Positions 21,226 through 45,444 are shown, numbered from the stretch's first letter. The stretch is DNA of 64,000 bases from an uncultured Bacteroidales bacterium (GCA_947165685.1 CAMVBK010000005.1:23071-87070), one strand, 5' to 3'. Translations and numbers: made by a program. The notes: a model not told the origin generated them from the letters alone.

Positions 21226-21262
21226 TGTAAAATTCTCTTACACGCTGTAAGATTTTCTTACA
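21226..21262 (+). promoter_or_regulatory. tandem dyad TGTAA-N7-TTACA x2 (candidate enhancer/UAS), copy A
   Basis: TGTAAaattctcTTACAcgcTGTAAgattttcTTACA. The same architecture occurs at 29415, 33508 and 45339. Confidence 0.55.
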
Positions 21263-21315
21263 CTTTCCTTTCGCCTTCTTCCGCTGACCATTTCACAATC
21301 AGCACATTACAGTTT

Positions 21316-21331
21316 TGGCATGTTTTTCGTC
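21316..21331 (+). promoter_or_regulatory. candidate sigma-54 promoter (-24 TGGCAT, degenerate -12), copy A, upstream of tolC
   Basis: TGGCATgttttTCGT, 54 nt after the dyads. Confidence 0.4.
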
Positions 21332-21336
21332 AAACC

Positions 21337-21364
21337 GTAGAGACGCAATACATGGCGTCTCTAC
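21337..21364. repeat. GTAGAGACGC palindromic hairpin, copy 1
   Basis: GTAGAGACGC-aatacatg-GCGTCTCTAC. It lies in the tolC leader, and the ORF-track ATG 21352 sits in its loop. Confidence 0.8.
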
Positions 21365-21384
21365 AACGGCAAAAACGAGAAAGT

Positions 21385-22719
21385 ATGGCAAGAAGAATGA
21401 CGATAACCCTATTGACGACACTCTTGTTCGGGGCGGCGAACGCGCAGGACACGGTGGTGATGACCCTGCGCGACTGTGTGCGTTACGCCCTGGCGCATTC
21501 GGCGGAGATGCGCGTGCTGCAGGCCGACCTCGGCGACGCGCAGCTGGCCCGCCGCAACGCCATCCTCAACGCCTTCACCCCGTCCGTCAGCGGCGACGTT
21601 TACGCCTACTCCAACTTCGGCCGCTCCATCGACCCCGAAACGAACACTTATAGCACCACCACCTCTTTCCACAATGGTTACGGCCTCTCCGCCGGCATCA
21701 CCCTTTTCAACGGATTCCGTGCGGTCAACAATATGAAAATCACAAAGTTGGCGGAAGAAACGGGCGTGACGAGAATACAGCAGGGCGAAGACCGCATTCG
21801 TCTCGCCACGATGGAAGCCTACTGCAACGTGCTTTATTACACGGAGTTGCTGAAAACAATACAGGCGCAAACGGAGACGGCGGAGACGGCCTTGCGGCTT
21901 GCGCAGAGACAGGCGGAGTTGGGGCAGAAGTCGCAGGCGAACGTCCTGCAGATGGAGGCCGACCTTTCCGACCGCCGCTACAAGCTCACCGTCTGTGAAA
22001 ACCAGCTTCAAAACGCCTATATCACCTTGAAGGACATTATGTTGTATCCGACAGACCAGCTGTTTTCCGTCACCGACGTAGAGGTGGACACAACGTTGTC
22101 GGATGGAATGCTCGCAATGGAGGCGGGTAGGGCGGCGGAGCGTCTGCCGGCCGTAATCATAGCCGAAAATGAGCGGCAGACCGCCCAGCTCGCCCTCAAG
22201 ACCGCGAAGTGGCAGCTGCTGCCGTCGCTGTCGCTGTACGGCGGCTGGTCCTCGACCTATTTCACCTATCCGGGTCGGGCGGGCTATGTGCCGGTCCCCT
22301 ACTGGCGGCAGCTTTCCGACAACGGCGGCGAGTACGTGCAGCTCTCGCTGAGCATCCCGATTTACGACCAGCTGTCGCGGCAGACGGAGATCGCGCGGCG
22401 GCGCCACGACTGCGACCGTGCGGAAGCCCGCTACATGCAGACGCGGCAGAGTGTGGAGGCTGAGGTTCGCCGCGCCCTCGCCGACCGCGACGGGGCCGCC
22501 GCCGCCCTGCGCCAGGCCGAACGGCACGCCGCCCTGCAGCAGCAGCTCTACGCGATGAGCACGCGCCAGTTCGAGCAGGGCCTCCTCTCCGCCCTCGAAT
22601 ACCGTACGGTCGCCGACAACCACCTCTCCTCCACCGCCGACCTGCTCAACGCAAGGCTGCAGCTGTTCCTGAAGACGTGGGTGGTGAGGTATTATTTTGG
22701 GTTGGTGAATGATGAATAA
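21385..22719 (+). CDS. TolC-family outer membrane efflux protein
   Basis: Signal peptide MARRMTITLLTTLLFGAANAQ, then two repeated coiled-coil/beta halves typical of the OEP family. Confidence 0.88.
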   Translation: MARRMTITLLTTLLFGAANAQDTVVMTLRDCVRYALAHSAEMRVLQADLGDAQLARRNAILNAFTPSVSGDVYAYSNFGRSIDPETNTYSTTTSFHNGYGLSAGITLFNGFRAVNNMKITKLAEETGVTRIQQGEDRIRLATMEAYCNVLYYTELLKTIQAQTETAETALRLAQRQAELGQKSQANVLQMEADLSDRRYKLTVCENQLQNAYITLKDIMLYPTDQLFSVTDVEVDTTLSDGMLAMEAGRAAERLPAVIIAENERQTAQLALKTAKWQLLPSLSLYGGWSSTYFTYPGRAGYVPVPYWRQLSDNGGEYVQLSLSIPIYDQLSRQTEIARRRHDCDRAEARYMQTRQSVEAEVRRALADRDGAAAALRQAERHAALQQQLYAMSTRQFEQGLLSALEYRTVADNHLSSTADLLNARLQLFLKTWVVRYYFGLVNDE

Positions 22720-22727
22720 TTAGTTTT

Positions 22728-22799
22728 CCTTGAGCAGCCTCGAAGAGGCAAAACGCACGAAGTGCAATTAACTCCACACAGGCGAAGCGCAGTGTGGGG
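22728..22799 (+). ncRNA. triple-hairpin ~70 nt element, copy 1 (3' of tolC)
   Basis: gcctc-gaa-gaggc, gcac-gaa-gtgc, ctccacac-N12-gtgtgggg (one U-G pair on the plus strand only). Confidence 0.45.
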
Positions 22800-22880
22800 C
22801 GTGATGTGGGAGTTGGCTTTGGGCTGGTAACAGTGGAATCCGCAGTGGGATAGTGCGTCGGAAGCGCGAGAATGAACACA

Positions 22881-26282: not shown

Positions 26283-26314
26283 ATATGATAAAAATTGTTA
26301 ATGGGATAGTCTTG

Positions 26315-27469
26315 TTATTTGTCGGATTCGACAGGAACTCTGACCTGACGAGAAGAAATGTTCCTACGGACTTTGGCTACCTTTTGGTACTTTGGAACTA
26401 TCCGAGTTCGGGGATATTCCACGTCTTTGTAGGTTATGGTTTCAAGAAGAACCGCCACTTTAACATTCACTCTGATTTTTCCAATTGGATTATCATTTCG
26501 TAAACAGATGTAATACGTTCCTTGAACATCGTTCGCATCTACAAATCTTCCGCAAGCCCCCGGACCATCACCTGTTTGCATACAATAGGCACGTTCCCCA
26601 TTCACGAATGCATTTCTATCGCTCCTGTTAGAAATAATAGCCCATATAACATTACCCACATCACCTCTGTCAGGAACAAGTAAATTAGTGATTTCTCCTG
26701 CAACGAAAGCCCCTAACGGACTCATTGTTGTTCCTGCTATTGCTGAAGCACCTTTCACCAACATGTTCTTGTTTTTGCTCCACCAATTGTTAGAATGGTC
26801 TCCTACACATATCCAATACCCCCAACCGACCACTCTTTTTCTCTGGTTGGCACTGGCGGTATTTTGTGGTAAATTAAAGGTAATACATTTGCGAGGATTC
26901 TCATTTAATATCATTCCAGCAACTGAGCAGATTTCTTCATTTCGATCTAATAACATCTCTTCCGATACCTCTTTTGATGCCACTTCTTTCATCGTCTCTA
27001 CGTAATGCACAGTGTCATGCCCTACAAGCGAATCCTCCGAATAGTGTGTGTATGTCGTGTCATACAATGTCTTCCATTGCCAGCCTGTGTTAAAATTAAC
27101 CGTTTCTTGAGATTTAGGGATTCGTTTTATGTGCAGGGAGCACATTTTACCGCCCATACCGTTGGTTATCTTGAATAGATATACCTTCGTGGAGAAAACA
27201 TTGACTTTATAATCAGTCAGTCTTGCTGTGAACTGGCTTGTTTTAACTTGGTTAGGCAGTTCCACAATCTCGAATTGCACACCCTTTCCCTTAGCAAGTT
27301 CAAAGTCTACAACGATTACGTCTCCTTCAGCAAAACTGTAGTAGAATTCTTCAGTACTGCCTCCATTCATCTTAAAAGACAAATCAGCGACTTGAATGGA
27401 CGGCAGTGCTAACGCGAAGGTCGTACTCATTATCAAAGAAACACATTCTAAAAAGCGTTTTTGAATCAT
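26315..27469 (-). CDS. hypothetical secreted protein (384 aa), co-oriented and tightly spaced upstream of the C10 peptidase
   Basis: Hydrophobic N-terminus, 32 nt gap to the peptidase start, no recognisable motif. Confidence 0.6.
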   Translation of the reverse strand: MIQKRFLECVSLIMSTTFALALPSIQVADLSFKMNGGSTEEFYYSFAEGDVIVVDFELAKGKGVQFEIVELPNQVKTSQFTARLTDYKVNVFSTKVYLFKITNGMGGKMCSLHIKRIPKSQETVNFNTGWQWKTLYDTTYTHYSEDSLVGHDTVHYVETMKEVASKEVSEEMLLDRNEEICSVAGMILNENPRKCITFNLPQNTASANQRKRVVGWGYWICVGDHSNNWWSKNKNMLVKGASAIAGTTMSPLGAFVAGEITNLLVPDRGDVGNVIWAIISNRSDRNAFVNGERAYCMQTGDGPGACGRFVDANDVQGTYYICLRNDNPIGKIRVNVKVAVLLETITYKDVEYPRTRIVPKYQKVAKVRRNISSRQVRVPVESDK

Positions 27470-29414: not shown

Positions 29415-29453
29415 TGTAAACATCCCTTACACCCACTGTAAGATTTTCTTACA
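29415..29453 (+). promoter_or_regulatory. tandem dyad TGTAA-N7-TTACA x2, copy B
   Basis: TGTAAacatcccTTACAcccacTGTAAgattttcTTACA. Confidence 0.55.
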
Positions 29454-29506
29454 CCCTCCATGTGCCAACATCCGTCGAACATCTCACAACCAGCATGTTA
29501 CGACTT

Positions 29507-29522
29507 TGGCATCCTTTTGGCA
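29507..29522 (+). promoter_or_regulatory. candidate sigma-54 promoter, copy B, upstream of the HlyD-family gene
   Basis: TGGCATccttTTGGCA has GG-N10-GC spacing and lies 54 nt after the dyads. Confidence 0.5.
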
Positions 29523-29636: not shown

Positions 29637-30887
29637 ATGGACAGAAAGATAGAACCAACCAAAGGAATCCGCAAACTCTTCACCCGCAAGGCACTGCCCT
29701 ACTGGGGCGGGGCGCTGATGCTCGTCTTCATCGGGTGGCTGCTGCTGCGGGACAACGCCTCGCGACTGCGCACGAACGGCGACACCTTCACCGTCGGCGA
29801 GGTGCGGCGCGGCGAGTTCAACGACTATATCCGCGTCACCGGGCAGGTGGTGCCGATGACCACTGTGCAGCTCAGCCCATTGGAGGGCGGTGTGGTGCAG
29901 CAGATTGTGACGGAGGAGGGCTCGCACGTCCGCGAGGGCGACATCATCCTGATTCTCAGCAACGAAGCGCTCGACATGCAGATTCTCAACGCCGAGGCCG
30001 ACCTCGCCGAAAAGGAGAACATCCTCCGCAACACGATGATCGCCATGGAACAGCAGAAACTGAACCTCCAGCAGGAGAAGCTGCAGCTGCAGATGGAGGT
30101 GCGCCGCAAAAAACGCACCTACGAGGCGAAAAAGTCGCTCTATGACGACAACCTCGTCGCGAAGGAGGAGTATTTGCAGGCCGAGGAGGAGTACCAGTTG
30201 GCCACCGACCGGCTCAAGCTGGTCGAGAACCGCGCCAAGCAGGACAGCCTCTACCGTTCGGTGGAAATCCGGCAGATGCGCGAAAGTTTGGAGAACATGC
30301 GGCTCAACATGCAGATGATACGTCATCGCAAGGAGAACCTTACCATCAAAGCCCCGATTGACGGCGAGCTTGGCCTTGTGGATGTGGTGCTCGGACAGTC
30401 TGTTGCGGCGGGCAGCAAGGTCGGGCAGATCAACAACCAGGACAACTACAAGCTCGAAGCTCTGATTGACGAGCACTATATCGACCGGGTGAGCGCGGGA
30501 CTGACCGCCGATTTCGAGCGGCAGGGCGAAAAGTGCAACGTGCTGATACGCAAGGTCTATCCCGAGGTGCGCGACGGCAAGTTCAAGGCCGACTTCAAAT
30601 TCCCCGACGGTCAGCCAGAGAACATCCGCACCGGCCAGACCTTCTACCTGAACCTGCAGCTCGGTCAGCCGGTGGAGGCCGTCCTCATTCCGCGCGGCGC
30701 CTTCTACCAAAAGACCGGCGGTAAGTGGATCTACGTGGTCTCCCCCGACGGCAAGCGTGCCGTGAAGCGCGACATCCGCATCGGTCGCCAAAATCCGCAG
30801 TACTACGAGGTTTTGGAAGGTCTTGAACCGGGCGAGAGGGTGATCACGTCGTCGTATGACGGGTACGGGGAGGCGGAAGTATTGGAA

Positions 30888-30899
<12 letters not shown>
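29637..30899 (+). CDS. efflux periplasmic adaptor (HlyD/MacA family membrane fusion protein)
   Basis: N-terminal TM, lipoyl-like motif, long coiled coil (LQQEKLQLQMEV..), beta-barrel C-terminal part. Confidence 0.88.
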
Positions 30900-30943
<44 letters not shown>

Positions 30944-33507: not shown

Positions 33508-33546
33508 TGTAAAGAAACCTTACACCTGCTGTAAGAAATCTTTACA
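33508..33546 (+). promoter_or_regulatory. tandem dyad TGTAA-N7-TTACA x2, copy C
   Basis: TGTAAagaaaccTTACAcctgcTGTAAgaaatctTTACA. Confidence 0.55.
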
Positions 33547-33598
33547 GCGGCCCTTTTGTTAGATGTTTAGAGAATTGACAACCAATGGTTTATGTTTT

Positions 33599-33614
33599 TG
33601 GCACGGAAAATGAT
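33599..33614 (+). promoter_or_regulatory. candidate sigma-54 promoter, copy C
   Basis: TGGCACGgaaaATGA, 53 nt after the dyads; the -12 region is weak. Confidence 0.4.
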
Positions 33615-33752: not shown

Positions 33753-36128
33753 ATGAAAAGTTACCTCAAATTCCTCAGTCGCAACAAACTCTACACCGCC
33801 GTCGAAGCGGTGGGCCTGGTCGTGAGTCTCGCGTTCGTGATCTTGATTGGCAGCTACGTGGCCCAACATCTGGCCGTCGTGAATGAGAATCCCGCCCATG
33901 ACCGCATTTACAGCCTCGGTAACACGTTACACTTGGGACTGTCTGTTTGGGATAAAGAGTCTCTGGAAACCAATATTCCTGAAATTGAGTTGATCAGCAG
34001 AATCACGGGGAAGGATGGAAAATTAGTTTACCAAAGTAATGCCTATCCTGCCAACATCAAGTTCGTTGACCAAGACTTTTTCAATCTTTTTCCGTATTAC
34101 ACGTTTGTGGAAGGAAGCAGTGACGGATTTGACAAATCCAACAACGCCATTATCAGTGAAACTATGGCCAGACAGTTTGAGGACAATGGGAACTTGTTGG
34201 GCAAAACCATCATCATCGATGAAAAACCATACATCATTTGCGGCATCATGAAAGATGTCCAAAATTCCTTGATTCAGTATTTTGACGTGCTGCTTCCTTT
34301 TGATGACAAAAGCTATGAGGGACAAAAACCTTTCAAGATAATCCAGGGTGTGCTCACCCTCTTTCAGAGAATGGAGAACACGGATGAGGAGGCTTTCAAA
34401 AACAAGGTACTTGACCTCTGCAATCAAAATTATAGTTCTTGGGGTGAAGAGTGGTTAAAAGGGCTTGTGGTGTACAATTATAAGGAGATGTTCTTCAATT
34501 CCTATTCCCATTCGAATAAAAGTATTCACACGGGGAACCTCACCAACATCTGGATCCTTACGGCCATCGTTATCCTTCTTTTGCTGTCGGCTGTCATCAA
34601 CTACATCAACCTCAGCATGGCTTTGGTGAGAAAACGTGCCAAGGAGATGGCCACCCGCCGGCTTTTGGGAGCACAGAAACTGTCCGTCATGGGCAAACTT
34701 ATTGCCGAATCTGTGTTGTTCACAGCAGTATGTTTCGGTTTTGCCTTTTTGTTGGCTTACGCTCTGGTGCCCACGATGAATCGGCTGTTAGTCAGCAATA
34801 CCCCTGATGCCGACATCCAGCTACGGCTGTTGATGACGCCTGCATACATAGTGGCGTATGTGAGTGGTGTCCTGCTACTGGGAGCGCTTTCGGGCTGGTT
34901 GCCAGCTTTGTTCGCCTCCCGTTATGCCCCGATTGAGGTGGTTCGCGGCGCGTTCCGCCAATACAACAAAATGTGGTTCAACAAGATATTCATCGTTTTT
35001 CAGAGCGTGCTTTCGTTTGTGCTGATCGCCTTGGCTATCGTGATGGAGGTGCAGATGCGGCACATGGTTAACCGCCCTATTCATCTTCAGACAACAGATC
35101 TTTTTGTGATTGATGAACTTTATCCTCCAAGAGCGTATTTGCCCGTTGTAGAAGAACTCAGGTCGTTGCCATGTGTTGAGGAAGTCGGTATCGGACAAGG
35201 TTATCCTGGGAAAATCAACTATAGCTTTGGCATTCCGACTATGGAAGACGATTCAAAAAGCGAGATAAAAATGGTAACGGTTCTGTGCGATTCAATCTAT
35301 TTCCAGTTGTTGGGGTTTGAGGTGGTTGAAGATTTCGGCCATCCCAAAGCCAATTCGCTATGGTTAGGAGAGCATGTTTTGATTGAAAGCGGTATTTCCG
35401 ACACTTCCACTTCGTTTTTGAACAATATAGCTGCATATTTCAGCAACTATTATTTCATGAACGTGGATTATATTGGCGGTGTTGTGCATGATTTCCCGGT
35501 TAAAACGGCTGCCTGTGCCGACGGCGACTATAATTTAAATGGTGGAGTTTATGTGTTTGATACAGAGAAGTTTGGTTATGGGGTCGGCTTGCTCGTCAAG
35601 ACCACAGGCGACCATGCGGAAGCTGAAAGGCAGATTATGAACCACTACAATCAGTGGGTGGAGAAAAAGGAGGGCGTAGGCAAGGATGTCAAGTGCGGGT
35701 ATGCGGATGATTTGATGTTGGAGCAGTTGGAGCCTGCCAAGCGCACCGTGCGGCTGTTGGAGCTTTTCATGGGGCTGTCGGTGCTACTCTCCTTGCTCGG
35801 CCTCATCGCCATGAGCACCTACTACAGTGGCGAGAACACCCAGGGCATCGCCATCCGCAAGGCTTTCGGCAGCGATGTGCGGCGCGAGCTGTGGCGCACG
35901 GTCAGAGGCTACATGCTCCTCGTCGGAATCGCGGCAACGATCGGTGTGCCTGTCGCTGTCTGGCTAAGCGGGAAGTACTTGGAACGTTTCGCCTACCGCA
36001 TCGAGCATTACGGCTGGATCTTTGTCGTGGCCGTCCTACTCACCGCGCTGATGGCCTTCCTCTCGGTGTTATGGCAGACGCTTCGCGCCGCGAGGACGAA
36101 CCCTGCGGAGGCGTTGAAGAAGGAGTGA
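33753..36128 (+). CDS. ABC transporter permease, long FtsX/MacB-type (permease 1)
   Basis: MKSYLKFLSRNKLYTAVEAVGL.. N-terminal TM, two FtsX 4-TM modules, two large extracytoplasmic domains, C-terminal ..LRAARTNPAEALKKE. Confidence 0.9.
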   Translation: MKSYLKFLSRNKLYTAVEAVGLVVSLAFVILIGSYVAQHLAVVNENPAHDRIYSLGNTLHLGLSVWDKESLETNIPEIELISRITGKDGKLVYQSNAYPANIKFVDQDFFNLFPYYTFVEGSSDGFDKSNNAIISETMARQFEDNGNLLGKTIIIDEKPYIICGIMKDVQNSLIQYFDVLLPFDDKSYEGQKPFKIIQGVLTLFQRMENTDEEAFKNKVLDLCNQNYSSWGEEWLKGLVVYNYKEMFFNSYSHSNKSIHTGNLTNIWILTAIVILLLLSAVINYINLSMALVRKRAKEMATRRLLGAQKLSVMGKLIAESVLFTAVCFGFAFLLAYALVPTMNRLLVSNTPDADIQLRLLMTPAYIVAYVSGVLLLGALSGWLPALFASRYAPIEVVRGAFRQYNKMWFNKIFIVFQSVLSFVLIALAIVMEVQMRHMVNRPIHLQTTDLFVIDELYPPRAYLPVVEELRSLPCVEEVGIGQGYPGKINYSFGIPTMEDDSKSEIKMVTVLCDSIYFQLLGFEVVEDFGHPKANSLWLGEHVLIESGISDTSTSFLNNIAAYFSNYYFMNVDYIGGVVHDFPVKTAACADGDYNLNGGVYVFDTEKFGYGVGLLVKTTGDHAEAERQIMNHYNQWVEKKEGVGKDVKCGYADDLMLEQLEPAKRTVRLLELFMGLSVLLSLLGLIAMSTYYSGENTQGIAIRKAFGSDVRRELWRTVRGYMLLVGIAATIGVPVAVWLSGKYLERFAYRIEHYGWIFVVAVLLTALMAFLSVLWQTLRAARTNPAEALKKE

Positions 36129-36185
36129 ACGGCGAACAAACGTCGGCGAATTTTACGAATTATGCGAATTATATAAAGACATATT

Positions 36186-36251
36186 CCTTGAGCAGCCCCG
36201 AAGGGGCAAGAGCTTGGTAGCCCCATACAAGGCGAAGCCGCAGTGTGGGGG
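36186..36251 (+). ncRNA. triple-hairpin element, copy 4 (intercistronic; middle hairpin degenerate)
   Basis: gcccc-gaa-ggggc (compensatory relative to gcctc/gaggc), ccccatac-N13-gtgtgggg. Confidence 0.45.
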
Positions 36252-36283
36252 ACATCAGAACGAACAATTTAATACCCATTATT

Positions 36284-36964
36284 ATGATCAAAGTACAAAA
36301 CCTCACCAAAATCTTCCGGACGGAAGAAATCGAGACCCTCGCGTTGGACGGTGTCTCGTTCGAAATACAGGACGGCGAGTTCGTCGCCGTGATGGGGCCG
36401 TCGGGCTGCGGCAAATCCACGCTGCTCAACATCCTCGGCCTCTTGGACAACCCCACCTCGGGCAGCTACGAGCTGTTGGGGCAGGAAGTCGGCAAGTTGA
36501 AGGAGCGGGAGCGCACCAAATTCCGCAAAGGCAACATCGGCTTCGTGTTCCAGAGCTTCAACCTCATCGACGAGCTGAACGTCTATGAGAACATCGAGCT
36601 GCCGCTGAAGTACCTGAACATCAGCGCCACGGAGCGCAAACAGCGCGTGACCGCCCTCATGGAACGCATGGCCATCAAGCACCGGGCCAAGCACTTCCCG
36701 CAGCAGTTGTCGGGCGGACAGCAGCAGCGTGTGGCCATCGCCCGCGCCGTGGTCGCCAACCCCAAGCTCATCCTCGCCGACGAGCCCACCGGCAACCTCG
36801 ACTCCAAGAACGGCAAAGAGGTGATGGACCTGCTCACCGAGCTGCACGACGAGGGCACCACCATCGTGATGGTCACCCACTCGCAGCGCGACGCGGGCTA
36901 CGCCGGCCGCGTCATCGACCTCTTCGACGGCCGCATCGTGGAGGATGTTCTGCCCGAACTGTGA
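36284..36964 (+). CDS. ABC transporter ATP-binding protein (MacB/LolD-type)
   Basis: Walker [11 protein letters not shown]-loop, [14 protein letters not shown], Walker [13 protein letters not shown]. Start placed at MIKVQNLTK. Confidence 0.93.
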
Positions 36965-37004
36965 TGCCATATTAAATTTGGTTAATAACATATTGAAGGG
37001 ATTT

Positions 37005-37033
37005 TGTAGAGACGTACCATGCGCGTCTCTACA
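37005..37033. repeat. GTAGAGACG palindrome, copy 3 (leader of permease 2)
   Basis: TGTAGAGACG-taccatgcg-CGTCTCTACA. Confidence 0.8.
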
Positions 37034-37071
37034 GACCCACCTTAAATTGCAGAAACCAAACATCAATTAAT

Positions 37072-39414
37072 ATGTTTCGAAAAAGTAATCTCTTAATCCA
37101 AATACTCTCCCTCGGGGTGGGTCTTGCAATCGGCATCGTGCTGATTGCCAAAGTGTGCTTCGAGTTGTCGTACGACAGTTTCTATAAAGACGTGGACCGT
37201 ATATATTGTATCCGTTCTGGTTACGAACTACAGGGCGAATCCAGAGATTTCCCTCAGGTGAGTGGTGCGGTAGCATTTGGCTTCAAGGCAGAGGTGCCGG
37301 GAGTGGAAGAAGCCACTCGAATGACTTTCTATTTCAATAGTGACCGTTATTTGGACGAGGATGGCAATGTCATCACCGGAAATCTCCGTTTAGCCGATTC
37401 ATGCTTCTTCCGCGTTTTTGACCGTCCCATTCTGGCTGGCAATCCGGAGAAAGTGCTGTCAGAGCCGCTATGTTTGATGGTGTCGGAGTCGTTTGCCAAA
37501 AAAATGGGTGGCGTGGAGGAATGTATTGGCAAAATCATCTACAACGAGGATGTCCCTTTGTTGAAAATGACTATTGAGGGCGTATTCAAGGATTTTCCTA
37601 AAAATGGTTCTATAGACGCCGACATTTTGCTGTCGATGGAGAGTTATTCAAAAAGCAGCACGGAGAACTGGGTCGGTAACGACCGCTATGTGGGATTTGT
37701 GAAATTGCAACAAGGTGTTGATCCGCAATCGCTTAACGATGCCATCCGTAGGATGCAGGAGGCTCATCAGCCTTTGGAGGAGTTTGAGAAGAACGGCATG
37801 AAGCTGTGGTATTATCTTGCACCATTTGGTAAAACCCACCTCAAAGAGTCTTCGGTGCATTCAATGGTAATACTGCTTTCCGTTATTGCAACAATGCTGA
37901 TTGTCATCAGCTTACTCAACTATATCCTGATCACAATTTCATCTATGGTGCATCGAGCCAAAGAAATTGGGGTACGAAAGTGCTATGGTGCGAACGCTTT
38001 CAGTATTTATGGATTATTGGCTCGGGAGTCGATAATACATCTATTATTGGCACTCGTTTTGGCAGCTGCCATTATTTTTGCCACAAAAGGATTGATACAG
38101 AACTTGTTGGGTGTGCCATTTGGGACATTACTTGTTCCCCAAAGCATTTGGACTATTGTGGCTGTGCTGTTGCTTGTGCTGTTCGTTTCCGTTTTCGTTC
38201 CTGCGCAGCTTTACATGCGCATTCCCGTTTCGGTGGCCTTCCGCAATTATACGGAAAATTCGCGGCGATGGAAAATAGGACTGCTTGGCGTTCAGGTGTT
38301 TGTCAATGTATTTGTCATTTCGATGCTGATGGTCATCGCTTCGCAATATCATAAAATGATGAACGACGACCCGGGCTACAATTATGAGAATGTGTTGTTT
38401 GTGGACATGTACGACGGAAATCAAGAGGCTCAACAACGTGTGGTGAATGCTCTTGGCCAACTTTCTGAAGTGACACACATTGCAGCAAGCTATGGTCTTC
38501 CTTATATTTGGTCGAATGGCGACAACATATATCTTCCCGGTGATGATCGTGAATTGTTCAACGTGGCCGACCAATACGAGGCCACAGAGCAATTCTATGC
38601 TCTTTTCGGGATGGAGTTTGTTGACGGTCGCGCACCGGCCGATTCCAATGAAGTGGTGGTGAGCGAGAGTTTTGTGAAACGAATGAATGACTTCACGGAC
38701 TGGAGCGATGGAGCGGTGGGGAAACAGATTATGATTACCGGACACGAAAACTCTTTGACAAATCTTAAATCATTCACGATCACAGGTGTTTACCGTGACT
38801 ATCGTCTGGGTAGCCTCTTGGATATGGATACCCGACCGAGCGTGCGTTTCTACGGCAGTTTGGAGGACGGAGAGTCTTATATGCCGCATCTGGTTTTCAA
38901 AGTGAATAAAATGGATGAAACCACGATTGGGAAGCTGAAGGAAGCCATTTCTAAGGCCCTTGATGGAAAAGATGTACAGTTGAAAGTATATGCGGACGAA
39001 ATGCATTCAGCATACGAAGATAGTCGCAAGATGCGCAACACCGTTTTCATCGGTTCCATTTTTGCATTGATGATTGCCATGTTGGGCCTCATCGGTTTCA
39101 TACGCGATGAGTCGAGTCGTCGGAGCAAAGAAATGGCCATCCGCAAAATTAACGGTGCTACAGAGAGAGATGTACTAAGTATTTTTGCTTGGGGTGTGTT
39201 GAAGTTATCTCTTATTATGTCGATTTTTGCGTGTGCTTTCGCCTATTTCGTTGCCGACAAATGGCTTGAACAGTTCGCCGAGCACATCAGCCTCTCGCCG
39301 TTGTATTTCATCTTTGGCGCAACGGTGGTTCTTCTCATCGTAGCAGTCGTAGTCGTTATGAGTAGTGTCAGAATTGCGAGGACTAACCCTGCTGAGGCGT
39401 TGAAGAAGGAATAG
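37072..39414 (+). CDS. ABC transporter permease, long FtsX/MacB-type (permease 2)
   Basis: Same architecture as permease 1; C-terminal ..IARTNPAEALKKE. Confidence 0.9.
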   Translation: MFRKSNLLIQILSLGVGLAIGIVLIAKVCFELSYDSFYKDVDRIYCIRSGYELQGESRDFPQVSGAVAFGFKAEVPGVEEATRMTFYFNSDRYLDEDGNVITGNLRLADSCFFRVFDRPILAGNPEKVLSEPLCLMVSESFAKKMGGVEECIGKIIYNEDVPLLKMTIEGVFKDFPKNGSIDADILLSMESYSKSSTENWVGNDRYVGFVKLQQGVDPQSLNDAIRRMQEAHQPLEEFEKNGMKLWYYLAPFGKTHLKESSVHSMVILLSVIATMLIVISLLNYILITISSMVHRAKEIGVRKCYGANAFSIYGLLARESIIHLLLALVLAAAIIFATKGLIQNLLGVPFGTLLVPQSIWTIVAVLLLVLFVSVFVPAQLYMRIPVSVAFRNYTENSRRWKIGLLGVQVFVNVFVISMLMVIASQYHKMMNDDPGYNYENVLFVDMYDGNQEAQQRVVNALGQLSEVTHIAASYGLPYIWSNGDNIYLPGDDRELFNVADQYEATEQFYALFGMEFVDGRAPADSNEVVVSESFVKRMNDFTDWSDGAVGKQIMITGHENSLTNLKSFTITGVYRDYRLGSLLDMDTRPSVRFYGSLEDGESYMPHLVFKVNKMDETTIGKLKEAISKALDGKDVQLKVYADEMHSAYEDSRKMRNTVFIGSIFALMIAMLGLIGFIRDESSRRSKEMAIRKINGATERDVLSIFAWGVLKLSLIMSIFACAFAYFVADKWLEQFAEHISLSPLYFIFGATVVLLIVAVVVVMSSVRIARTNPAEALKKE

Positions 39415-39427
39415 TTACTTGAAAAGA

Positions 39428-39751
39428 TCAATTGATATGTGCAAAATGGTCCAAATAACGGTTGAGCGCGGCAAGGGTGTCCAAATCCCCATCAAGGAAA
39501 GCCCCGCAGTAAAGTTCCCGGAATCGGCAGAGCTCTTTCAGGAGGGCTCTGTGGTTGGGTTGCCCAAGCCTTCCGTATGCGATGGTCAGGTCGACGAGCT
39601 CTTGCATCCTTTCGAAAGCCTTCTCAGCGTTGTCACGACGGCCTTTAGCGAGCCATTTCGTGGCACGATAAGTTTCGCTCCCAATATTGGCCATCTGTTT
39701 TGCAAAGGGCATCTCGGCCCATGCTCCGTTACTGAGTGTCTCGTGCTGCAT
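39428..39751 (-). CDS. hypothetical 107 aa helical protein
   Basis: Intact ORF. A conserved 24-codon 3' relic of a paralogue occurs at 44123-44208. No motif recognised. Confidence 0.5.
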   Translation of the reverse strand: MQHETLSNGAWAEMPFAKQMANIGSETYRATKWLAKGRRDNAEKAFERMQELVDLTIAYGRLGQPNHRALLKELCRFRELYCGAFLDGDLDTLAALNRYLDHFAHIN

Positions 39752-39920
39752 TATTCAACGAATTTTGAAACGATGGATTTTATTTGTTCCCTGACTTCCG
39801 GATTCTCAACATCACGGCTGCGGTTGCCTTATCGGCCACACACTTAATCATATCAATGAAAGTATTGGATGCCAATTCTTTAAGTTGTTCTCTTGATATT
39901 TTTTCAGTAAGTACCTGCAT
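39752..39920 (-). pseudogene. possible decayed small gene (DUF5674-like N- and C-terminal pieces in different frames)
   Basis: MQVLTEKISREQLKELASNTFIDMIKCVADKA.. in one frame and ..RDVENPEVREQIKSIVSKFVE* in another. The family resemblance is from memory only. Confidence 0.3.
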
Positions 39921-39958
39921 AAATCATTTTTTCGGCAAAAATAATAAAATATCAACTT

Positions 39959-40029
39959 CCTTAGAGCAGCCCCGGAGGGGCAAAACGCGCGCAGCGCAAT
40001 TAACCCCACACAAGCGCAGCGCAGTGTGG
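39959..40029 (+). ncRNA. triple-hairpin element, copy 5 (leader of permease 3)
   Basis: gcccc-gga-ggggc, gcgc-gca-gcgc, ccacac-N12-gtgtgg; ends 18 nt before ATG 40048. Confidence 0.5.
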
Positions 40030-40047
40030 AACCTAAAACCAAATGAT

Positions 40048-42420
40048 ATGAAAAGCTACCTCAAATTCCTCAGCAGAAACAAACTCTACACCGCCGTGGA
40101 GGCGGTGGGACTGGTGGTGAGCCTCGCGTTCGTGATCATCATCGGCAGCTACGTGTGGCAGCAGTACGCCATCGCGCATTCCACCCCTGATGGCGAACGT
40201 GTCTATGCCGTGAGCGCTGACAACTACTTCTTCGGACTCTCGTGGTGGGACAAAGCCTGCTTCGAGGAGGAAATTCCCGAAGTGGAGACGGCCTGCCGGA
40301 TAGGCTCTACCGACGAAGATGCCATTGTCACGTATAAAGGCGAACCATTTAATGCCATTGTGACGTATGGAGACCCAGAGCTGTTCGAGATTTTCTCAGA
40401 CCACCCCTTGGTGGATGGCAGTCTTGAACCTTACCGGTTGAAGGGACAGTGCCTTGTCTCTGAGTCTTTTGCGAAGCGCGTGCTGGGTGAAAACCCTGTG
40501 GGCAAGCAGGTCTCGATGCGTTTTTTTTTCGAGAACGTAGGCGAATACACAGTATGTGGTGTCTATCGTGACTTCACGAACTCGATGATGCCGACCACGG
40601 AAGTCCTCCTCAACCCCGAATTTGAGCCGACACATGTCGGGAACGTGCCGTTCAGTTCTGTCGGGAATTTCACGACCTTGCTCAAGGTGCACGAAGGCAC
40701 AGACAGAGAACTGTTTGCCCAAAAGATAAAAGCTGTCTGCCACAAAAACTACGACCGCATTGGTTTAGTCAAAGATTTTCTCATCCATACGCTACCCGAG
40801 GTCTATTTCAACGATAACCAGTTCCATTTCAAGAGCGGCAGTCGGCAAGTGCTGAGGGTTTTGTCGGTTGTGGTGCTTCTGCTCTTCGTCTCCGCGTTGT
40901 TCAACTATATCAACCTGAACATGGCCTTGTCGGGGAAACGGGCCAAGGAGATGGCCACGAGACGTCTTCTCGGCACGCAAAAGTCCAGAATCATATTCAA
41001 CTATATGGTCGAATCCGTTTTGTTTACCGCAGTATGTTTCGTGGGTGCGCTGTTGTTAGCCTATGCGCTGCTCCCAATGATGAACAGCCTGCTGGGGATT
41101 TCAGGCGACGACGGCTTCCACGCATGGCAGTTCGCGGCGATTCGGATAGGCATGTCGGCGGCCTGTCTCGTGACCTACCTTTTGGTCATTGTGCTGGCAG
41201 GTTGTTTGGCGGGTTTGGCTCCGGCGGCCATGGCGTCGCGATTCGCACCCATAGATGTTGTGCGCGGCCGCTACCGGCTTCGGAGCAAAATGCTGTTCAG
41301 CAAGGTGTTCATTGTCTTTCAGAATGTGATCACCGTCGTGATGATTGCCTTGGCGCTGCTGATGGAAGTGCAGATGCGCTATATGCTCAACCGTCCTCTC
41401 AACGCTCGCTCCGAAGGGCTGTACTCGCTTCAGTTTTTCACTCAGAGCTACACAGAAATGCAGCCGCTTATCGACCGTTTGGAGATGATTCCCGAGGTGG
41501 AAAGCGTTGGCTGCGGGCGCGGTTTCGCCGGGCAGATCCAGCAGCTTTTCGGTTTTCCGGACATGGAAGGAGAAGAAATCTCCGTCTGGTCCATTCTTTG
41601 TGATGATGTCTATTTCAACCAGCTCGGACTGCATGTCATAGAGGATTTCGGGCATCCCAAACCCAATTCCGTTTGGTTTTCCAAATCGTTGGCGGACAAA
41701 CTGCTTCTGAACGATTCCTCAATGAACTATTATAGCCAAAGGTTCAACTTCAACGGGGCAAAGGTGGAATGTGTTGGAGGTGTTTATGAAGACATTCCCA
41801 CAAGTGTCTCCTCGGCTAATGAGGAACAGTCGCTGATTGTCGTTGCTCCGAGGAAAGATATTGCGTTTGCAGAAGGTATAATGATTGAAGTTTCAAGTAA
41901 TTACAAGGAAGCAGAAGCGGCGGTCATGAATGCATACGAAGAGTATTCTGCCGAAGAGAACAGTTTTGTGGTGCCACCGGCCCGAAACGGCTATGTGCGG
42001 GACTTGTTGGACAGGTCTTTGCTGCCCGCCCAAAAGGCCATGCGCCTGCTCGAACTGTTCATGCTGCTATCCGTCTTGATCTCCCTGCTCGGCCTCGTTG
42101 CCATGAGCACCTACTACAGCGGCGAGAACACCAAGAGCATCGCCGTGCGGAAAACCTTCGGCAGCGATGTGCGGCGCGAGCTGTGGCGCACGGTCAGAAG
42201 TTACATGCTGCTCGTCGGAATCGCGGCTATGATCGGTGTGCCTGTCGCTGTCTGGCTAAGCGGGAAGTATTTGGAACGTTTCGCCTATCGCATCGAGCAT
42301 TACGGCTGGATCTTTGTCGTGGCGGTCCTGCTCACCGCGCTGATGGCCTTCCTCTCGGTGCTTTGGCAGACCCTCCGCGCCGCGCGGACGAATCCTGCGG
42401 TGGCGTTGAAGAAGGAATAG
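40048..42420 (+). CDS. ABC transporter permease, long FtsX/MacB-type (permease 3)
   Basis: Starts MKSYLKFLSRNKLYTAVEAVGL, identical to permease 1. The longer track ORF from 39784 runs through the hairpin element and the antisense of minus-strand genes. Confidence 0.9.
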   Translation: MKSYLKFLSRNKLYTAVEAVGLVVSLAFVIIIGSYVWQQYAIAHSTPDGERVYAVSADNYFFGLSWWDKACFEEEIPEVETACRIGSTDEDAIVTYKGEPFNAIVTYGDPELFEIFSDHPLVDGSLEPYRLKGQCLVSESFAKRVLGENPVGKQVSMRFFFENVGEYTVCGVYRDFTNSMMPTTEVLLNPEFEPTHVGNVPFSSVGNFTTLLKVHEGTDRELFAQKIKAVCHKNYDRIGLVKDFLIHTLPEVYFNDNQFHFKSGSRQVLRVLSVVVLLLFVSALFNYINLNMALSGKRAKEMATRRLLGTQKSRIIFNYMVESVLFTAVCFVGALLLAYALLPMMNSLLGISGDDGFHAWQFAAIRIGMSAACLVTYLLVIVLAGCLAGLAPAAMASRFAPIDVVRGRYRLRSKMLFSKVFIVFQNVITVVMIALALLMEVQMRYMLNRPLNARSEGLYSLQFFTQSYTEMQPLIDRLEMIPEVESVGCGRGFAGQIQQLFGFPDMEGEEISVWSILCDDVYFNQLGLHVIEDFGHPKPNSVWFSKSLADKLLLNDSSMNYYSQRFNFNGAKVECVGGVYEDIPTSVSSANEEQSLIVVAPRKDIAFAEGIMIEVSSNYKEAEAAVMNAYEEYSAEENSFVVPPARNGYVRDLLDRSLLPAQKAMRLLELFMLLSVLISLLGLVAMSTYYSGENTKSIAVRKTFGSDVRRELWRTVRSYMLLVGIAAMIGVPVAVWLSGKYLERFAYRIEHYGWIFVVAVLLTALMAFLSVLWQTLRAARTNPAVALKKE

Positions 42421-42639: not shown

Positions 42640-44061
42640 ATGGATAAAAATTTTATCGGCAGAAAACAGGAAATCAAAATGTTACAAGACATTAAAGATT
42701 CTGGAAAAGCTGAATTTGTGGCCGTTTACGGGCGTCGGCGCGTGGGCAAGACTTATCTGATACAACAATTTTTCGACAACAAGTTCGCCTTCTCCGCCAC
42801 GGGTATCCTAGAAGGCACCCGTGAAGAGGAACTCTTTGCCTTTACGAGTGCCATGATTGCTGTCGGTTATACAGGACCCCTGCCCAAGACTTGGCTCGAA
42901 GCATTTGAAGCACTCAAATCTGTTTTAGAGAAACAGTCGCGCAAAGGTCGTCTGGTCATCTATATTGACGAACTCCCTTGCTTTGATACGCCCAAGTCAG
43001 GCTTTGTACGTGCTTTAGGGCATTTTTGGAACACCTGGGCCGCATTACGTAAAGATGTCATACTTGTTGTTTGCGGTTCCGCTACCTCTTGGATGATTGA
43101 GAACATTGTCAATGACCACGGTGGGCTCCATGATCGAACCACCCATACTATCTATTTGAGGCAGTTTACGTTAGCAGAAACGGAATCCTATCTGAAGACT
43201 AAGAAAATCCATTGGTCTCGTCAGATGATTGTTGAGACATACATGATGCTCGGGGGCATACCCTATTACCTCTGTTTGCTCAACCCTCAAGAGAGCCTTG
43301 CCCAAAACATCGACAGACTCTATTTTCATAAAAACGCTGAACTCGGACAGGAATACCAACGACTTTACGCCTCTCTGTTCAAGTCGCCAGAATCTTACAT
43401 TCGCATCGTTGAGCTGTTAGGCAAGAACAAGCAGGGGCTCACGAGAGGAGAAATTGCAGAAAATCTGAAAATATCATCCAGCGGCACGCTGAGTAAACAG
43501 CTTGAAAATCTGGAATATTGCGACATCATTCGCCGTTATGTGACCAAGATGGGTGGCAAACCTAAAACCAACGAGGCCTATTTCCAATTGGTGGACCTCT
43601 TCACGCTTTTCCATCTCACTTTCTCCAAGAAACTTACCACTGAAGACTATTGGGAGCAGCATCTCAATACTCCAGTCCTTAACACTTGGCAAGGACTTGC
43701 TTTCGAGCATGTCTGCATGGTACATATAAACCAGATTCGTCATGCCCTTGGCCTTGACAGAATTGCGGTGGAATACTACTCTTGGCGAAACTCTAAAGTT
43801 CCTCGGGCACAAGTGGATATGATTATCGAGCGTGCTGACCGTCTTATCAACCTCTGCGAAATCAAATACACCCAATCAGAATATACCATCACTTCCGATG
43901 AGGATCTGAAAGTCCGTAACCGTGCGGCAGCATTCGTCCGGGAGACCAAGACCCGAAACGGTATCCTTCCCACTTGGATTACCCCTTACGGCCTTTCCCA
44001 GAACGAGTATTCTTCAAATGTCCAATATCAGGTGACGATGGACGACCTGTTTGCCGACTGA
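42640..44061 (+). CDS. solo ATPase (archaeal-type AAA / DUF234 family)
   Basis: F.GR..E...L......G...FV.VYGRRRVGKTYL Walker A, Walker B VIYIDELP, winged-helix-like middle part, C-terminal DUF234-like region. Confidence 0.85.
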   Translation: MDKNFIGRKQEIKMLQDIKDSGKAEFVAVYGRRRVGKTYLIQQFFDNKFAFSATGILEGTREEELFAFTSAMIAVGYTGPLPKTWLEAFEALKSVLEKQSRKGRLVIYIDELPCFDTPKSGFVRALGHFWNTWAALRKDVILVVCGSATSWMIENIVNDHGGLHDRTTHTIYLRQFTLAETESYLKTKKIHWSRQMIVETYMMLGGIPYYLCLLNPQESLAQNIDRLYFHKNAELGQEYQRLYASLFKSPESYIRIVELLGKNKQGLTRGEIAENLKISSSGTLSKQLENLEYCDIIRRYVTKMGGKPKTNEAYFQLVDLFTLFHLTFSKKLTTEDYWEQHLNTPVLNTWQGLAFEHVCMVHINQIRHALGLDRIAVEYYSWRNSKVPRAQVDMIIERADRLINLCEIKYTQSEYTITSDEDLKVRNRAAAFVRETKTRNGILPTWITPYGLSQNEYSSNVQYQVTMDDLFAD

Positions 44062-44065
44062 ATTG

Positions 44066-44208
44066 TCAGCTACGTTGCGCGCCGCGAAAACGAACCCGGC
44101 GGAGGCGTTGAAGAAGGAGTAGTTACTTGAAAATGTTAATTGATATGTGCAAAATGGTCCAGATAACGGTTTAGAGCGGAAAGGGTATCCAAATTCCCAT
44201 CAAGGAAA
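44066..44208. pseudogene. relic: last ~18 codons of an FtsX permease gene (plus strand) and last ~24 codons of a paralogue of the 107 aa gene (minus strand)
   Basis: ..cgcgccgcgaaaacgaacccggcggaggcgttgaagaaggagtag encodes (L)RAAKTNPAEALKKE*. It is followed by ttacttgaaaatgttaattgatatgtgcaaaatggtcc.., collinear with 39370-39510. Confidence 0.75.
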
Positions 44209-44236
44209 CAACATGCATTGATATCATAATATTTTG

Positions 44237-44244
44237 TACTTTTG
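44237..44244 (+). promoter_or_regulatory. -7 box
   Basis: TACTTTTG, 23 nt before ATG 44267. Confidence 0.55.
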
Positions 44245-44266
44245 CAGAAACAATTCCTATGTCAAG

Positions 44267-45334
44267 ATGAGATACAACAGATCTTTAATCCATGACGGCT
44301 TGTTAATGATGGTCGTTATCTTGTTTACTTCCATAGCTTTTTCGTTTAAACTTCATGCTCAGCGGGTGTTTGCCCCGTATTACGATGACAAAGACGCCAG
44401 ATTCCTTTATTGGGATTCATGTAGAAAAGACTATTTGCTCGTCAAGGACTATGATTTCGGATGCCTCTACATTCCAGGGATTGAAAAACCTGATTACGGT
44501 TACTCCTATAGCCATAAGACTCATAAGTTGACGCTGGTGGAGTGTAAGACGTTTATTGACATACCCGGTGTTCGCCTGAATCCAGATGGTTCCGCGATGA
44601 TCGATTCGGCTGGCAATCCAATCTTTGAAGAAGTAGAGAAGGTAAAGACCAAACGTCGTTCGATCAAGTTACCCGATAGTTTGGCGGCTCCTTTGACGGA
44701 ACTTTACCGTTTGGCTGTGAAGACCGCCCGTCCCGACACTTGTGTCAGCGATGAGCCGCCAATTTTGGATGGATGGGGATGGTCTTTTTATTCAGGAGCA
44801 TTCCCTGGCGGTGTCGCGAATGACCCGTTCCGTCATTCTTGTTCAAACGACACGGTTCGGAATGTTCAGCGTTTCAATAGGATTCATTTCTCTGTGGAAA
44901 AAGCTGTAAGAGAAGGGAATGTGAAACCTATTGTGAAGGTGATGCCTGTAGTGTGGGATTTGATTGAGGCATGGGGCGGGAAAACTGGGGGAAAAAGTGA
45001 AAAATTGTCTTTTGCGGATAAAATCAAAGAAGTTCGATACTTTGGAAATGTTATCCCAATTGAAGATTTTCACGTCAAAGAGGAGCGGAAGTGTTTCGAA
45101 GTTGCATGTAAAATGTCTTACGGTCGCTGGAAAGTAAAAACCGTTATCCCGGAGTGGCTGGTTCGCGATGCGGAGTCGATTGAAATTTGGATTGTCCCGG
45201 ATCGGCATGACAAAACCCCATACGTTGATTTGACGCGATGGTATAATGCAGGGACTCTTCCTGTAGGAGTATGTGTCCAATGTCAGGATGGGGCAACTGG
45301 CCATTTGGATATTTATTTCAATTGTAAAGAATAG
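44267..45334 (+). CDS. hypothetical secreted protein (355 aa)
   Basis: Signal/TM LLMMVVILFTSIAFSFKLHAQ. Three collinear weak similarity blocks with the 50064-51098 product. Confidence 0.6.
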   Translation: MRYNRSLIHDGLLMMVVILFTSIAFSFKLHAQRVFAPYYDDKDARFLYWDSCRKDYLLVKDYDFGCLYIPGIEKPDYGYSYSHKTHKLTLVECKTFIDIPGVRLNPDGSAMIDSAGNPIFEEVEKVKTKRRSIKLPDSLAAPLTELYRLAVKTARPDTCVSDEPPILDGWGWSFYSGAFPGGVANDPFRHSCSNDTVRNVQRFNRIHFSVEKAVREGNVKPIVKVMPVVWDLIEAWGGKTGGKSEKLSFADKIKEVRYFGNVIPIEDFHVKEERKCFEVACKMSYGRWKVKTVIPEWLVRDAESIEIWIVPDRHDKTPYVDLTRWYNAGTLPVGVCVQCQDGATGHLDIYFNCKE

Positions 45335-45338
45335 GGCG

Positions 45339-45376
45339 TGTAAAGAATCCTTACACTGCTGTAAAGGATGTTTACG
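45339..45376 (+). promoter_or_regulatory. tandem dyad TGTAA-N7-TTACA x2, copy D
   Basis: TGTAAagaatccTTACActgcTGTAAaggatgtTTACG. Confidence 0.5.
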
Positions 45377-45428
45377 CTTTTTGCGGTATTCATATTGTAT
45401 TCTGCTTAACGTCAATGACTTCACAGTT

Positions 45429-45444
45429 TGGCACGGTTGCTGTA
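45429..45444 (+). promoter_or_regulatory. candidate sigma-54 promoter, copy D
   Basis: TGGCACGgttgCTGT, 53 nt after the dyads; the -12 region is not canonical. Confidence 0.4.

Follow-up and report, generated by a model that had tools for sequence, protein, structure and literature searches.

Four sites in a 64,000-nucleotide (nt) stretch of DNA from an uncultured Bacteroidales bacterium (GCA_947165685.1 CAMVBK010000005.1:23071-87070; the whole stretch is hereafter called the window, and coordinates count from its first letter) carry a composite module, here named A to D, in which two tandem dyads, a spacer element and a TGGCA-containing box precede efflux genes. We consider it probable (about 0.82) that these modules are classical enhancer-dependent sigma-54 promoters, which are driven by the adjacent two-component system and control a MacAB-TolC-like multi-permease pump. 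What the genomes show directly is the motifs, together with how they are spaced, how well they are conserved and which genes surround them.

The modules were read base by base at the four sites listed by an earlier note on this DNA, and all four were recovered base for base (Table 1). The window contains exactly four tandem pairs of TGTAA-N7-TTACA, each with TTTGGCA(C/T) 52-53 intervening nt downstream, and the genes that follow are tolC, the gene for an HlyD-type adaptor and those for two permeases of the FtsX/MacB type. The coordinate difference between the last dyad base and the T of TGGCA is 54, 54, 53 and 53 in modules A, B, C and D (53, 53, 52 and 52 intervening nt), the same figures as given previously, and the dyad centres, reported to be 20-22 bp apart, were re-measured at 20, 22, 22 and 21 bp. 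With up to one mismatch, TGTAA-N7-TTACA has nine matches in the window compared to 1.13 expected, a number reached by none of 100 shuffles; eight of the nine are the four module pairs, and no extra tandem pair appears in the window even with up to two mismatches. The TGGCA(C/T) box is present in all four modules, as is a G at -13, while T(-14) is found in two and C(-12) in module B only. Modules A and B are 75% identical across 88 nt, whereas modules C and D have only the motif positions in common with them. No housekeeping-type TAnnTTTG box lies between dyads and genes in modules A, B and D, which bears on the alternative, raised in the earlier note, of transcription starting from such promoters; a TATTTTTG box does occur 54 nt upstream of module C.

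The strongest evidence comes from other genomes. One genome per species, approximately 186,000 species in all, was scanned with a pattern that contained only the tandem dyads (gap of 2-7 nt) and not the promoter. At least 119 loci were recovered, and the family counts that follow are those among the matches listed, that is, samples and not totals. In 62 of these loci (69 sites), all of them Bacteroidales or Bacteroidia, the second dyad is followed by TGGCA at a distance of 52-56 nt, with 7, 22, 17, 20 and 3 sites at 52, 53, 54, 55 and 56 nt over a background of about one per position. Scoring with a generic sigma-54 consensus gave 68 matches at 52-56 nt after the dyads versus 0.11 expected per position, as well as a minor cluster of five at 62-66 nt, one helical turn further. 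Base counts over the 64 unique sites revealed a G 13 nt after the T of TGGCA in every one (64/64) and a T just before it, at +12, in 56, neither position being part of the search pattern; the position of the -12 'C' is occupied by C in 29, T in 22, A in 10 and G in 3 sites, and the likewise unsearched positions +5 and +6 hold only C or T and only G or A, respectively. The resulting consensus, TTTGGCAC(G/A)-N4-wTG(C/T)T, has the appearance of a sigma-54 -24/-12 pattern with a relaxed -12 C. It had been noted that only one G is invariant in the -12 region and that only module B has GG-N10-GC. Both features were seen, and since the same G rule holds across the unique sites, the degenerate -12 region should be regarded as a trait of the family and not as decay of four copies; with the comparative data, most of the doubt over the sigma-54 assignment is removed.

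The dyads have the family consensus TGTAAAG-N3-CTTTACA. A spacer of N5 between the half-sites (17 bp in total) is found in all eight window dyads and in 116 family dyads, and the gap between dyads is 4 or 5 nt in most family sites. Across dozens of species the motif positions are kept in sense orientation, the sequence between the motifs is not, and the region where a TAnnTTTG box would fall carries no information family-wide. The remaining 57 of the 119 listed loci have no TGGCA at 52-56 nt. Among them, several Bacteroidota loci (among L045, L053, L039, L043 and L119, and L011, L097, L117, L014 and L019) show variants with the promoter 62-66 nt away and an extra TTTACA half-site, or with a -24 box of TGGCC, AGGCAC or TTGCAT, the correctly spaced TG(C) being kept. 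The Clostridia loci were rejected as unrelated: their operator is a different one, TGTAAC-N5-GTTACA in two copies 7 nt apart, and it immediately precedes genes of the XRE type. This clostridial operator is found in many Oscillospiraceae and Acutalibacteraceae metagenome-assembled genomes (MAGs), upstream of a gene for an XRE-type helix-turn-helix (HTH) protein with the pattern M.GLK.IRK.R..NQQKVA (L009, L010, L013, L024, L028, L034, L040, L054, L063, L076, L077, L081, L088, L095, L104 and L114).

The genes behind the modules are equally consistent. When the first gene downstream of each of the 69 sites was compared by blastx with the window proteins, it was an FtsX/MacB permease in 30 cases, TolC in 20, an ABC ATPase in 7 and HlyD in one, so that 58 of the 69 sites have an efflux component first; one more site (L094) precedes an AAA_14/DUF4143 ATPase gene. 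Ten sites were unmatched, five to six of which are at contig ends, and the rest lie before genes for a lipoprotein, an outer-membrane barrel or an esterase. As two or three modules are present in several genomes, a regulon with more than one promoter is normal for this system. At L005, L021, L062, L060 and L079, the module is followed by a gene for a lipoprotein of approximately 230-315 amino acids (aa) with repeated GxG beta-strand motifs, or for a CarboxypepD_reg-type barrel, and then by an orthologue of permease 4; these genes may be extra regulon members that have no counterpart in the window. A 366-aa open reading frame (ORF) upstream of module D had no family match and, when compared with the lipoproteins that follow the modules of L005 and L062, proved unrelated to them.

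The candidate activator is encoded upstream of module A, with the kinase gene in between. It belongs to the NtrC family of response regulators, with Pfam matches to Response_reg (4.8e-20), Sigma54_activat (3.2e-67) and a C-terminal Fis-type HTH_8 (9.1e-11), and its closest solved structures in the PDB are those of the NtrC-family proteins NtrC4/NtrC1, LuxO and ZraR. Pfam and sequence agree with the previous description of a sigma-54 interaction domain of the AAA+ type, with an ESELFGH motif and a GAFTDA loop. The loop is kept in 117 of 120 regulator homologues, also in distant homologues beside dyads, and 100%-identical regulator proteins occur in Bacteroidales MAGs. Because every NCBIfam equivalog match is below cut-off, the protein is not an orthologue of NtrC, ZraR, AtoC or any other named regulator. 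The cognate kinase has a single N-terminal transmembrane helix and no extracytoplasmic or PAS-type sensor domain. Its gene overlaps the regulator stop codon, and hence both genes form one operon; the window scans detected no dyads upstream of it, and module A begins 3 nt past the kinase stop codon.

Adjacency of regulator and dyads extends well beyond the window. Regulator homologues with 33-68% identity directly adjoin dyads in Flavobacteriales, Prolixibacteraceae (L045 and L053), other Bacteroidota and one Desulfuromonadaceae MAG, at a distance of 20-300 nt in eight or more loci that span several orders and phyla. For example, the flavobacterial locus L039 (Maribacter) has the order regulator <- dyads -> tolC-hlyD-ABC-permease, and L068 and the sister species L120 (regulator 77% identical) have an uninterrupted regulator-kinase-module-tolC-hlyD arrangement. 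Thus, the four-promoter sigma-54 regulon under the neighbouring regulator that was tentatively proposed before gains support from the invariant G, the sigma-54 score, the efflux genes downstream and this adjacency.

Between enhancer and promoter, a third conserved element was found. With the sites aligned on TGGCA (positions in nt relative to its T), the spacer positions are sharp and the dyads blurred, and as the element is sharp only under this anchoring, it appears to be tied to the promoter and not to the enhancer. The bases A(-30), T(-24), A(-15) and T(-9) each occur in 80-97% of sites, and the element has its axis of symmetry 19.5 nt upstream of this T (A-N5-TTGAT.ATCAA-N5-T), which places its centre at approximately -46 from the predicted transcription start (taken as ~26 nt after the T of TGGCA). 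The consensus WATCAANNNNTTR of integration host factor (IHF) is matched at 8/9 or better at offset -20/-19 in 28 of 69 sites and, as reverse complement, at -31/-32 in 26 of 69 sites, compared to 0-5 times at any other offset. The motif CAT(T/C)TCACAA(T/C)CAGCA that had been described in the spacers of modules A and B is real, lies within their 75%-identical 88 nt and is part of this element.

Most likely, the spacer element binds a DNA-bending protein of the IHF/HU family, to which BHFa, a host factor of Bacteroides, belongs (PMC6606824). The identity of this protein is nevertheless the least secure step of the model. It is also possible, if less probable, that the -46 palindrome serves some other dimeric factor acting as co-regulator, bends intrinsically, or makes a third contact with the activator or the sigma-54 holoenzyme: its symmetry is unlike the asymmetric IHF site of Escherichia coli, and the TTGAT/ATCAA half-sites resemble those of FNR/CRP-type proteins. 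On the other hand, both half-sites fit WATCAANNNNTTR at one fixed offset, the element is unlike the regulator dyad, and in classical sigma-54 promoters it is between the enhancer and the -24 box that IHF acts.

Taken together, the enhancer-dependent sigma-54 reading suggests the following course of events, for which we infer the binding partners, the inducing signal, the DNA bend and the dependence on sigma-54. The kinase, with its single helix and no sensor domain, would phosphorylate the regulator in response to a signal that is probably related to the envelope or to drugs. Two TyrR-box-like 17-bp palindromes on one helix face (~-108 and ~-88) would bind the phosphorylated NtrC-type regulator, and the two regulator dimers would nucleate an AAA+ hexamer. 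Sigma-54 holoenzyme would occupy TGGCAC(G/A)-N4-wTG(C/T) as a closed complex, to which the bend at ~-46 would bring the AAA+ ring, and ATP hydrolysis by the ring would open the promoter. All parts of the pump would thereby be induced together: TolC, the single adaptor and ATPase, and the four paralogous permeases with duplicated FtsX.

Several points weigh against this reading. It rests on sequence, and start sites, binding and expression are predictions for every member. At the promoter, modules A and B lack the T that usually precedes the invariant G, module B alone among the four has the canonical C at -12, a base found in only 45% of the family sites, and in classical sigma-54 compilations this C is nearly invariant. 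At the spacer, the match of module D to the IHF consensus is weak (6/9) and the palindromic geometry is not that of the E. coli site. Neither an rpoN gene nor an IHF/HU gene was found within the 64-kb window. Finally, the regulator loop is GAFTDA and not GAFTGA; GAFTDA has been listed among activation-compatible loop substitutions (PMC4641369), but for VfmH, which has the same loop, interaction with sigma-54 is unproven (PMC10714721).

The dyads could, in principle, be bound by a different enhancer-binding protein encoded elsewhere, which we regard as rather improbable. The binding of the dyads by the adjacent regulator is a prediction, the TGTAAA half-site is common to TyrR-type proteins, and in the relatives L122-L125 the regulator-kinase pair has no adjoining efflux gene, so that adjacency is not universal; yet the homologues that adjoin dyads in several orders and phyla, the start of module A immediately behind the kinase gene and the regulator-kinase-module-tolC order kept in L120 and L068 all favour the neighbouring protein. 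Some of the points listed above would also suit a role of the dyads as operators for a repressor or a sigma-54-independent regulator such as E. coli TyrR, with a promoter of the housekeeping or extracytoplasmic function (ECF) type and an incidental TGGCA, since the dyad is nearly a TyrR box, the loop is a variant, the -12 C is poorly conserved and module C has a TATTTTTG box upstream. This is very improbable in the face of TGGCA followed by TG at +12/+13 with fixed spacing in 64 independent sites, the lack of a TAnnTTTG box between dyads and genes in A, B and D and of any family-wide information at the expected -7 position, and dyad centres at -88 and -108, which suit activation and are poorly placed for repression.

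That the modules are passive repeat copies with no regulatory role, left as by-products of duplication or as a miniature mobile element, is hardly credible. The locus is clearly rearranged and modules A and B are close copies of each other; modules C and D, however, share with them nothing but the motif positions, and it is these positions, and not the intervening sequence, that are kept in sense orientation before efflux genes in dozens of species. An elaboration of the sigma-54 reading seems unlikely but can be stated precisely: a distinct architecture with a homodimeric IHF/HU-type protein obligatory at the symmetric ~-46 site, a relaxed -12 element (TG, no required C) and a kinase that would read the activity of the FtsX/ADOP permeases themselves, i.e., transporter-coupled flux sensing like that of the Bce systems of Firmicutes, though with sigma-54 as its output. 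Sensing of the BceRS-BceAB type was itself rejected, as the kinase has one transmembrane helix (not two) and the regulator is NtrC-type (not OmpR-type); Bce traits in the window are limited to the kinase lacking a sensor domain and the FtsX-family permease.

Among known systems, the closest are the NtrC-type sigma-54 promoters (E. coli glnAp2/NtrC, ZraSR-zraP and AtoSC-atoDAEB), in which the activator is also a response regulator with receiver (REC), AAA+ and Fis-type HTH domains, regulator and kinase genes share a transcript, and two 17-bp dyads are located about 90-110 bp upstream of GG-N10-G(C). The window system differs from these in that its target, an ABC efflux regulon, is distributed over four promoters, its half-sites read TGTAAA and not TGCACC, the -12 C is relaxed, the loop is GAFTDA and the host belongs to Bacteroidales. 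The TyrR box is TGTAAA-N6-TTTACA with a length of 18 bp, and the TyrR/PhhR/GcsR type has TGTAAA/TTTACA half-sites, tandem sites and a Fis-type C-terminal HTH in common with the window system (PMC4894688); the window dyads, with N5 and 17 bp, are one base shorter and thus fall outside the TyrR box, and the regulator has a receiver domain instead of ACT/PAS. IHF-assisted promoters such as Pseudomonas Pu/XylR and Klebsiella nifH/NifA also have a WATCAANNNNTTR-like element fixed between enhancer and -24 box. Here, by contrast, it is palindromic, matches in either orientation, which suggests a homodimer, and is nearer to the promoter. Sigma-54 -24/-12 promoters with mapped start sites are known from Flavobacterium (PMC9723704). 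A computational study of 2025 found sigma-54 promoters enriched before COG0577/FtsX-type permease genes in Bacteroidia and termed this the first such evidence (PMC12316311); it describes the same promoter-gene association at the level of the class, and its available text gives the -24/-12 link without an enhancer motif, regulator, IHF-like element or multi-promoter layout. Our literature search yielded only this computational report; it found no experimental description of the system, nor any account that covers the enhancer motif, its two-component system, the IHF-like element or the way in which the modules are dispersed.

With regard to the efflux genes, Pfam matches above cut-offs to FtsX, MacB_PCD, ABC_tran, HlyD_3 and OEP provide the full part list of a MacAB-TolC-type pump. 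The adaptor has DarC-like and MacA-like NCBIfam matches below cut-off, and the four permeases are paralogous ADOP family-like proteins of ~790 aa whose NCBIfam permease matches are all below cut-offs. Because the MacA, MacB and Dar equivalogs are not reached, the pump is best considered a relative of MacAB-TolC and not an orthologue. It resembles MacAB-TolC and DarBCD exporters and ADOP permeases in having permeases with FtsX and a MacB periplasmic core, a separate or fused ATPase, an HlyD-type adaptor and TolC, and differs from them in that four duplicated permeases are served by one ATPase gene. The 630-nt gap before permease 3 contains two small ORFs on the opposite strand, which interrupt the presumed operon.

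Table 1. Coordinates of the modules, genes and repeats in the window. Dyad centres are given relative to the predicted transcription start.
Feature	Position	Strand	Details
Tandem repeat	2622-2773		8-9-nt GGTTAGTG units, ~13 copies
Tandem repeat	10639-10690		13-nt TAGTCATAGTCAT unit, ~3-4 copies
Sigma-A -7 box of regulator-kinase operon	18961..18968	+	TATTTTTG, Bacteroidota TAnnTTTG box; sequence
NtrC-family response regulator / bacterial enhancer-binding protein	19035..20369	+	Pfam, sequence and structure matches
Cognate histidine kinase	20366..21223	+	285 aa; H-box ITHEIMN, HATPase_c; Pfam, sequence, hydropathy
Module A enhancer	21226..21262	+	17-bp dyads TGTAAAATTCTCTTACA (21226-21242) and TGTAAGATTTTCTTACA (21246-21262); centres ~-108, ~-88
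Module A IHF-like element	21285..21308	+	AATCAGCACATTA, 8/9 to WATCAANNNNTTR; contains the CATTTCACAATCAGCA motif of the earlier note
Module A -24/-12 promoter (predicted)	21316..21331	+	TGGCATGTTTTTCGTC, GG-N10-GT; T of TGGCA 21316; predicted start ~21342; tolC start codon 21385
Hairpin	21338-21365		10-bp stem, GTAGAGACGC...GCGTCTCTAC
TolC-family outer-membrane channel	21385..22719	+	Pfam OEP; NCBIfam TolC family
Triple-hairpin repeat	22733-22800		after tolC
Inserted block	22881-29353		between tolC and hlyD
SocA/Panacea antitoxin-like gene	28345-28971		with overlapping 130-aa partner
Module B enhancer	29415..29453	+	dyads TGTAAACATCCCTTACA (29415-29431) and TGTAAGATTTTCTTACA (29437-29453); centres ~-110, ~-88
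Module B IHF-like element	29476..29499	+	AACCAGCATGTTA, 7/9
Module B -24/-12 promoter (predicted)	29507..29522	+	TGGCATCCTTTTGGCA, GG-N10-GC; T of TGGCA 29507; predicted start ~29533
Triple-hairpin repeat	29548-29615		before hlyD
HlyD/MFP-type periplasmic adaptor	29637..30899	+	Pfam; NCBIfam RND_mfp above cut-off
AAA_14/ATPase_2 + DUF4143 ATPase gene	31026-32453	-	
Module C enhancer	33508..33546	+	dyads TGTAAAGAAACCTTACA (33508-33524) and TGTAAGAAATCTTTACA (33530-33546); centres ~-109, ~-87
Module C IHF-like element	33568..33591	+	AACCAATGGTTTA, 8/9 forward; TTGAC at -24
Module C -24/-12 promoter (predicted)	33599..33614	+	TGGCACGGAAAATGAT, GG-N10-GA; T of TGGCA 33599; predicted start ~33625
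Triple-hairpin repeat	33670-33737		before permease 1
Presumed operon permease 1-ABC ATPase-permease 2-permease 3	33753..42420	+	Pfam, NCBIfam, ORFs
Permease 1	33753-36128	+	duplicated FtsX/MacB_PCD
Triple-hairpin repeat (variant)	36186-36257		before ABC ATPase
ABC ATPase	36245-36964	+	Pfam ABC_tran; the one ABC ATPase gene
Permease 2	37072-39414	+	duplicated FtsX/MacB_PCD
Two small ORFs	39428-39920	-	107 aa without family match; 46 aa with weak DUF5674 match
Triple-hairpin repeat	39965-40032		before permease 3
Permease 3	40048-42420	+	duplicated FtsX/MacB_PCD
AAA_14/ATPase_2 + DUF4143 ATPase gene	42640-44061	+	
Duplicate of 39364-39500	44072-44208		after the ATPase_2/DUF4143 gene
Module D enhancer	45339..45376	+	dyads TGTAAAGAATCCTTACA (45339-45355) and TGTAAAGGATGTTTACG (45360-45376; TTACG end, one mismatch); centres ~-108, ~-87
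Module D spacer element	45398..45421	+	weakest, 6/9; A(-15), T(-9) kept
Module D -24/-12 promoter (predicted)	45429..45444	+	TGGCACGGTTGCTGTA, GG-N10-GT; T of TGGCA 45429; predicted start ~45455
Permease 4	45473..47887	+	duplicated FtsX/MacB_PCD, ADOP-like; downstream of module D
Tandem repeat	58866-59075		42-nt unit, 4-5 copies

The arrangement of the locus suggests that an ancestral operon, regulator-kinase-[module]-tolC-hlyD and further genes, has been broken by inserted genes, each fragment having its own copy of the module. The contiguity of tolC and hlyD in the sister species L120 shows that the two were once neighbours, whereas 6.7 kb of unrelated genes lie between them in the window; since module B was copied from the same unit as module A, to which it is 75% identical, the regulon appears to have been kept intact by duplication of the whole enhancer-promoter unit. 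The block between the two genes, which is absent from the tolC-hlyD junction of L120, contains a gene for a C10 peptidase of the streptopain type, 1133 aa long, which has an I69 inhibitor prodomain and, at its C-terminus, a type IX secretion system (T9SS) sorting domain; two ORFs without confident family assignment; and the antitoxin-like gene with its partner. AAA_14/ATPase_2 and DUF4143 ATPase genes lie among the efflux genes of the window and also adjoin modules elsewhere (L094 and L096). Downstream of one of them, the last ~50 nt of a permease gene and the region that follows it are duplicated without a permease ORF, which is a remnant of a rearrangement or insertion in the permease array. 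CAAAnnTA promoter boxes also occur in the window; together with the T9SS domain of the peptidase and the identical regulators in Bacteroidales MAGs, they identify the host, whose genome is of the rumen type, as a member of Bacteroidales.

A repeat of approximately 68 nt with three hairpins (GCAGCCUCGGAGAGGC..GCACGAAGUGC..CCCCACACAAGCGAAGCGCAGUGUGGGG) is present in five copies among the efflux genes, all in sense orientation and with compensatory changes in the stems. A covariance model found the five copies in the window, two in the near relative L048 and none in 69 other loci; hence, the repeat is lineage-specific and was rejected as part of the conserved module. In the ancestral operon, it may have served between cistrons for stabilisation or processing. 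The separate hairpin, whose position coincides exactly with the start predicted for the tolC transcript, is kept in L120 with loop and stem changes and could be a 5'-terminal stabilising stem-loop. An Rfam scan of the whole window at gathering thresholds reported only a tRNA, and module C with its leader, scanned by E-value, gave no match, on which grounds the modules and leader hairpins do not belong to a known RNA family.

If the sigma-54 reading is right, a textbook sigma-54 design would operate on an uncharacterised regulon that recurs across Bacteroidales, and a hitherto uncharacterised two-component system found in Bacteroidales of gut and rumen would be linked to a defined DNA motif and a multi-permease set of efflux targets. 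Predictions are provided at the level of single bases for dyads, bend site, -24/-12 elements and start sites, and the composite pattern is specific enough to allow the regulon to be reconstructed from the genome of any member of Bacteroidales. Of interest to specialists are the relaxed -12 element and the symmetry of the IHF-like site. The locus would also offer an example of a regulon that has outlived the break-up of its operon, the enhancer-promoter unit having been copied to every fragment. Considering that such efflux systems are candidate determinants of the tolerance of dominant gut bacteria to antimicrobial peptides, bile or xenobiotics, knowledge of the switch that may control them would be useful.

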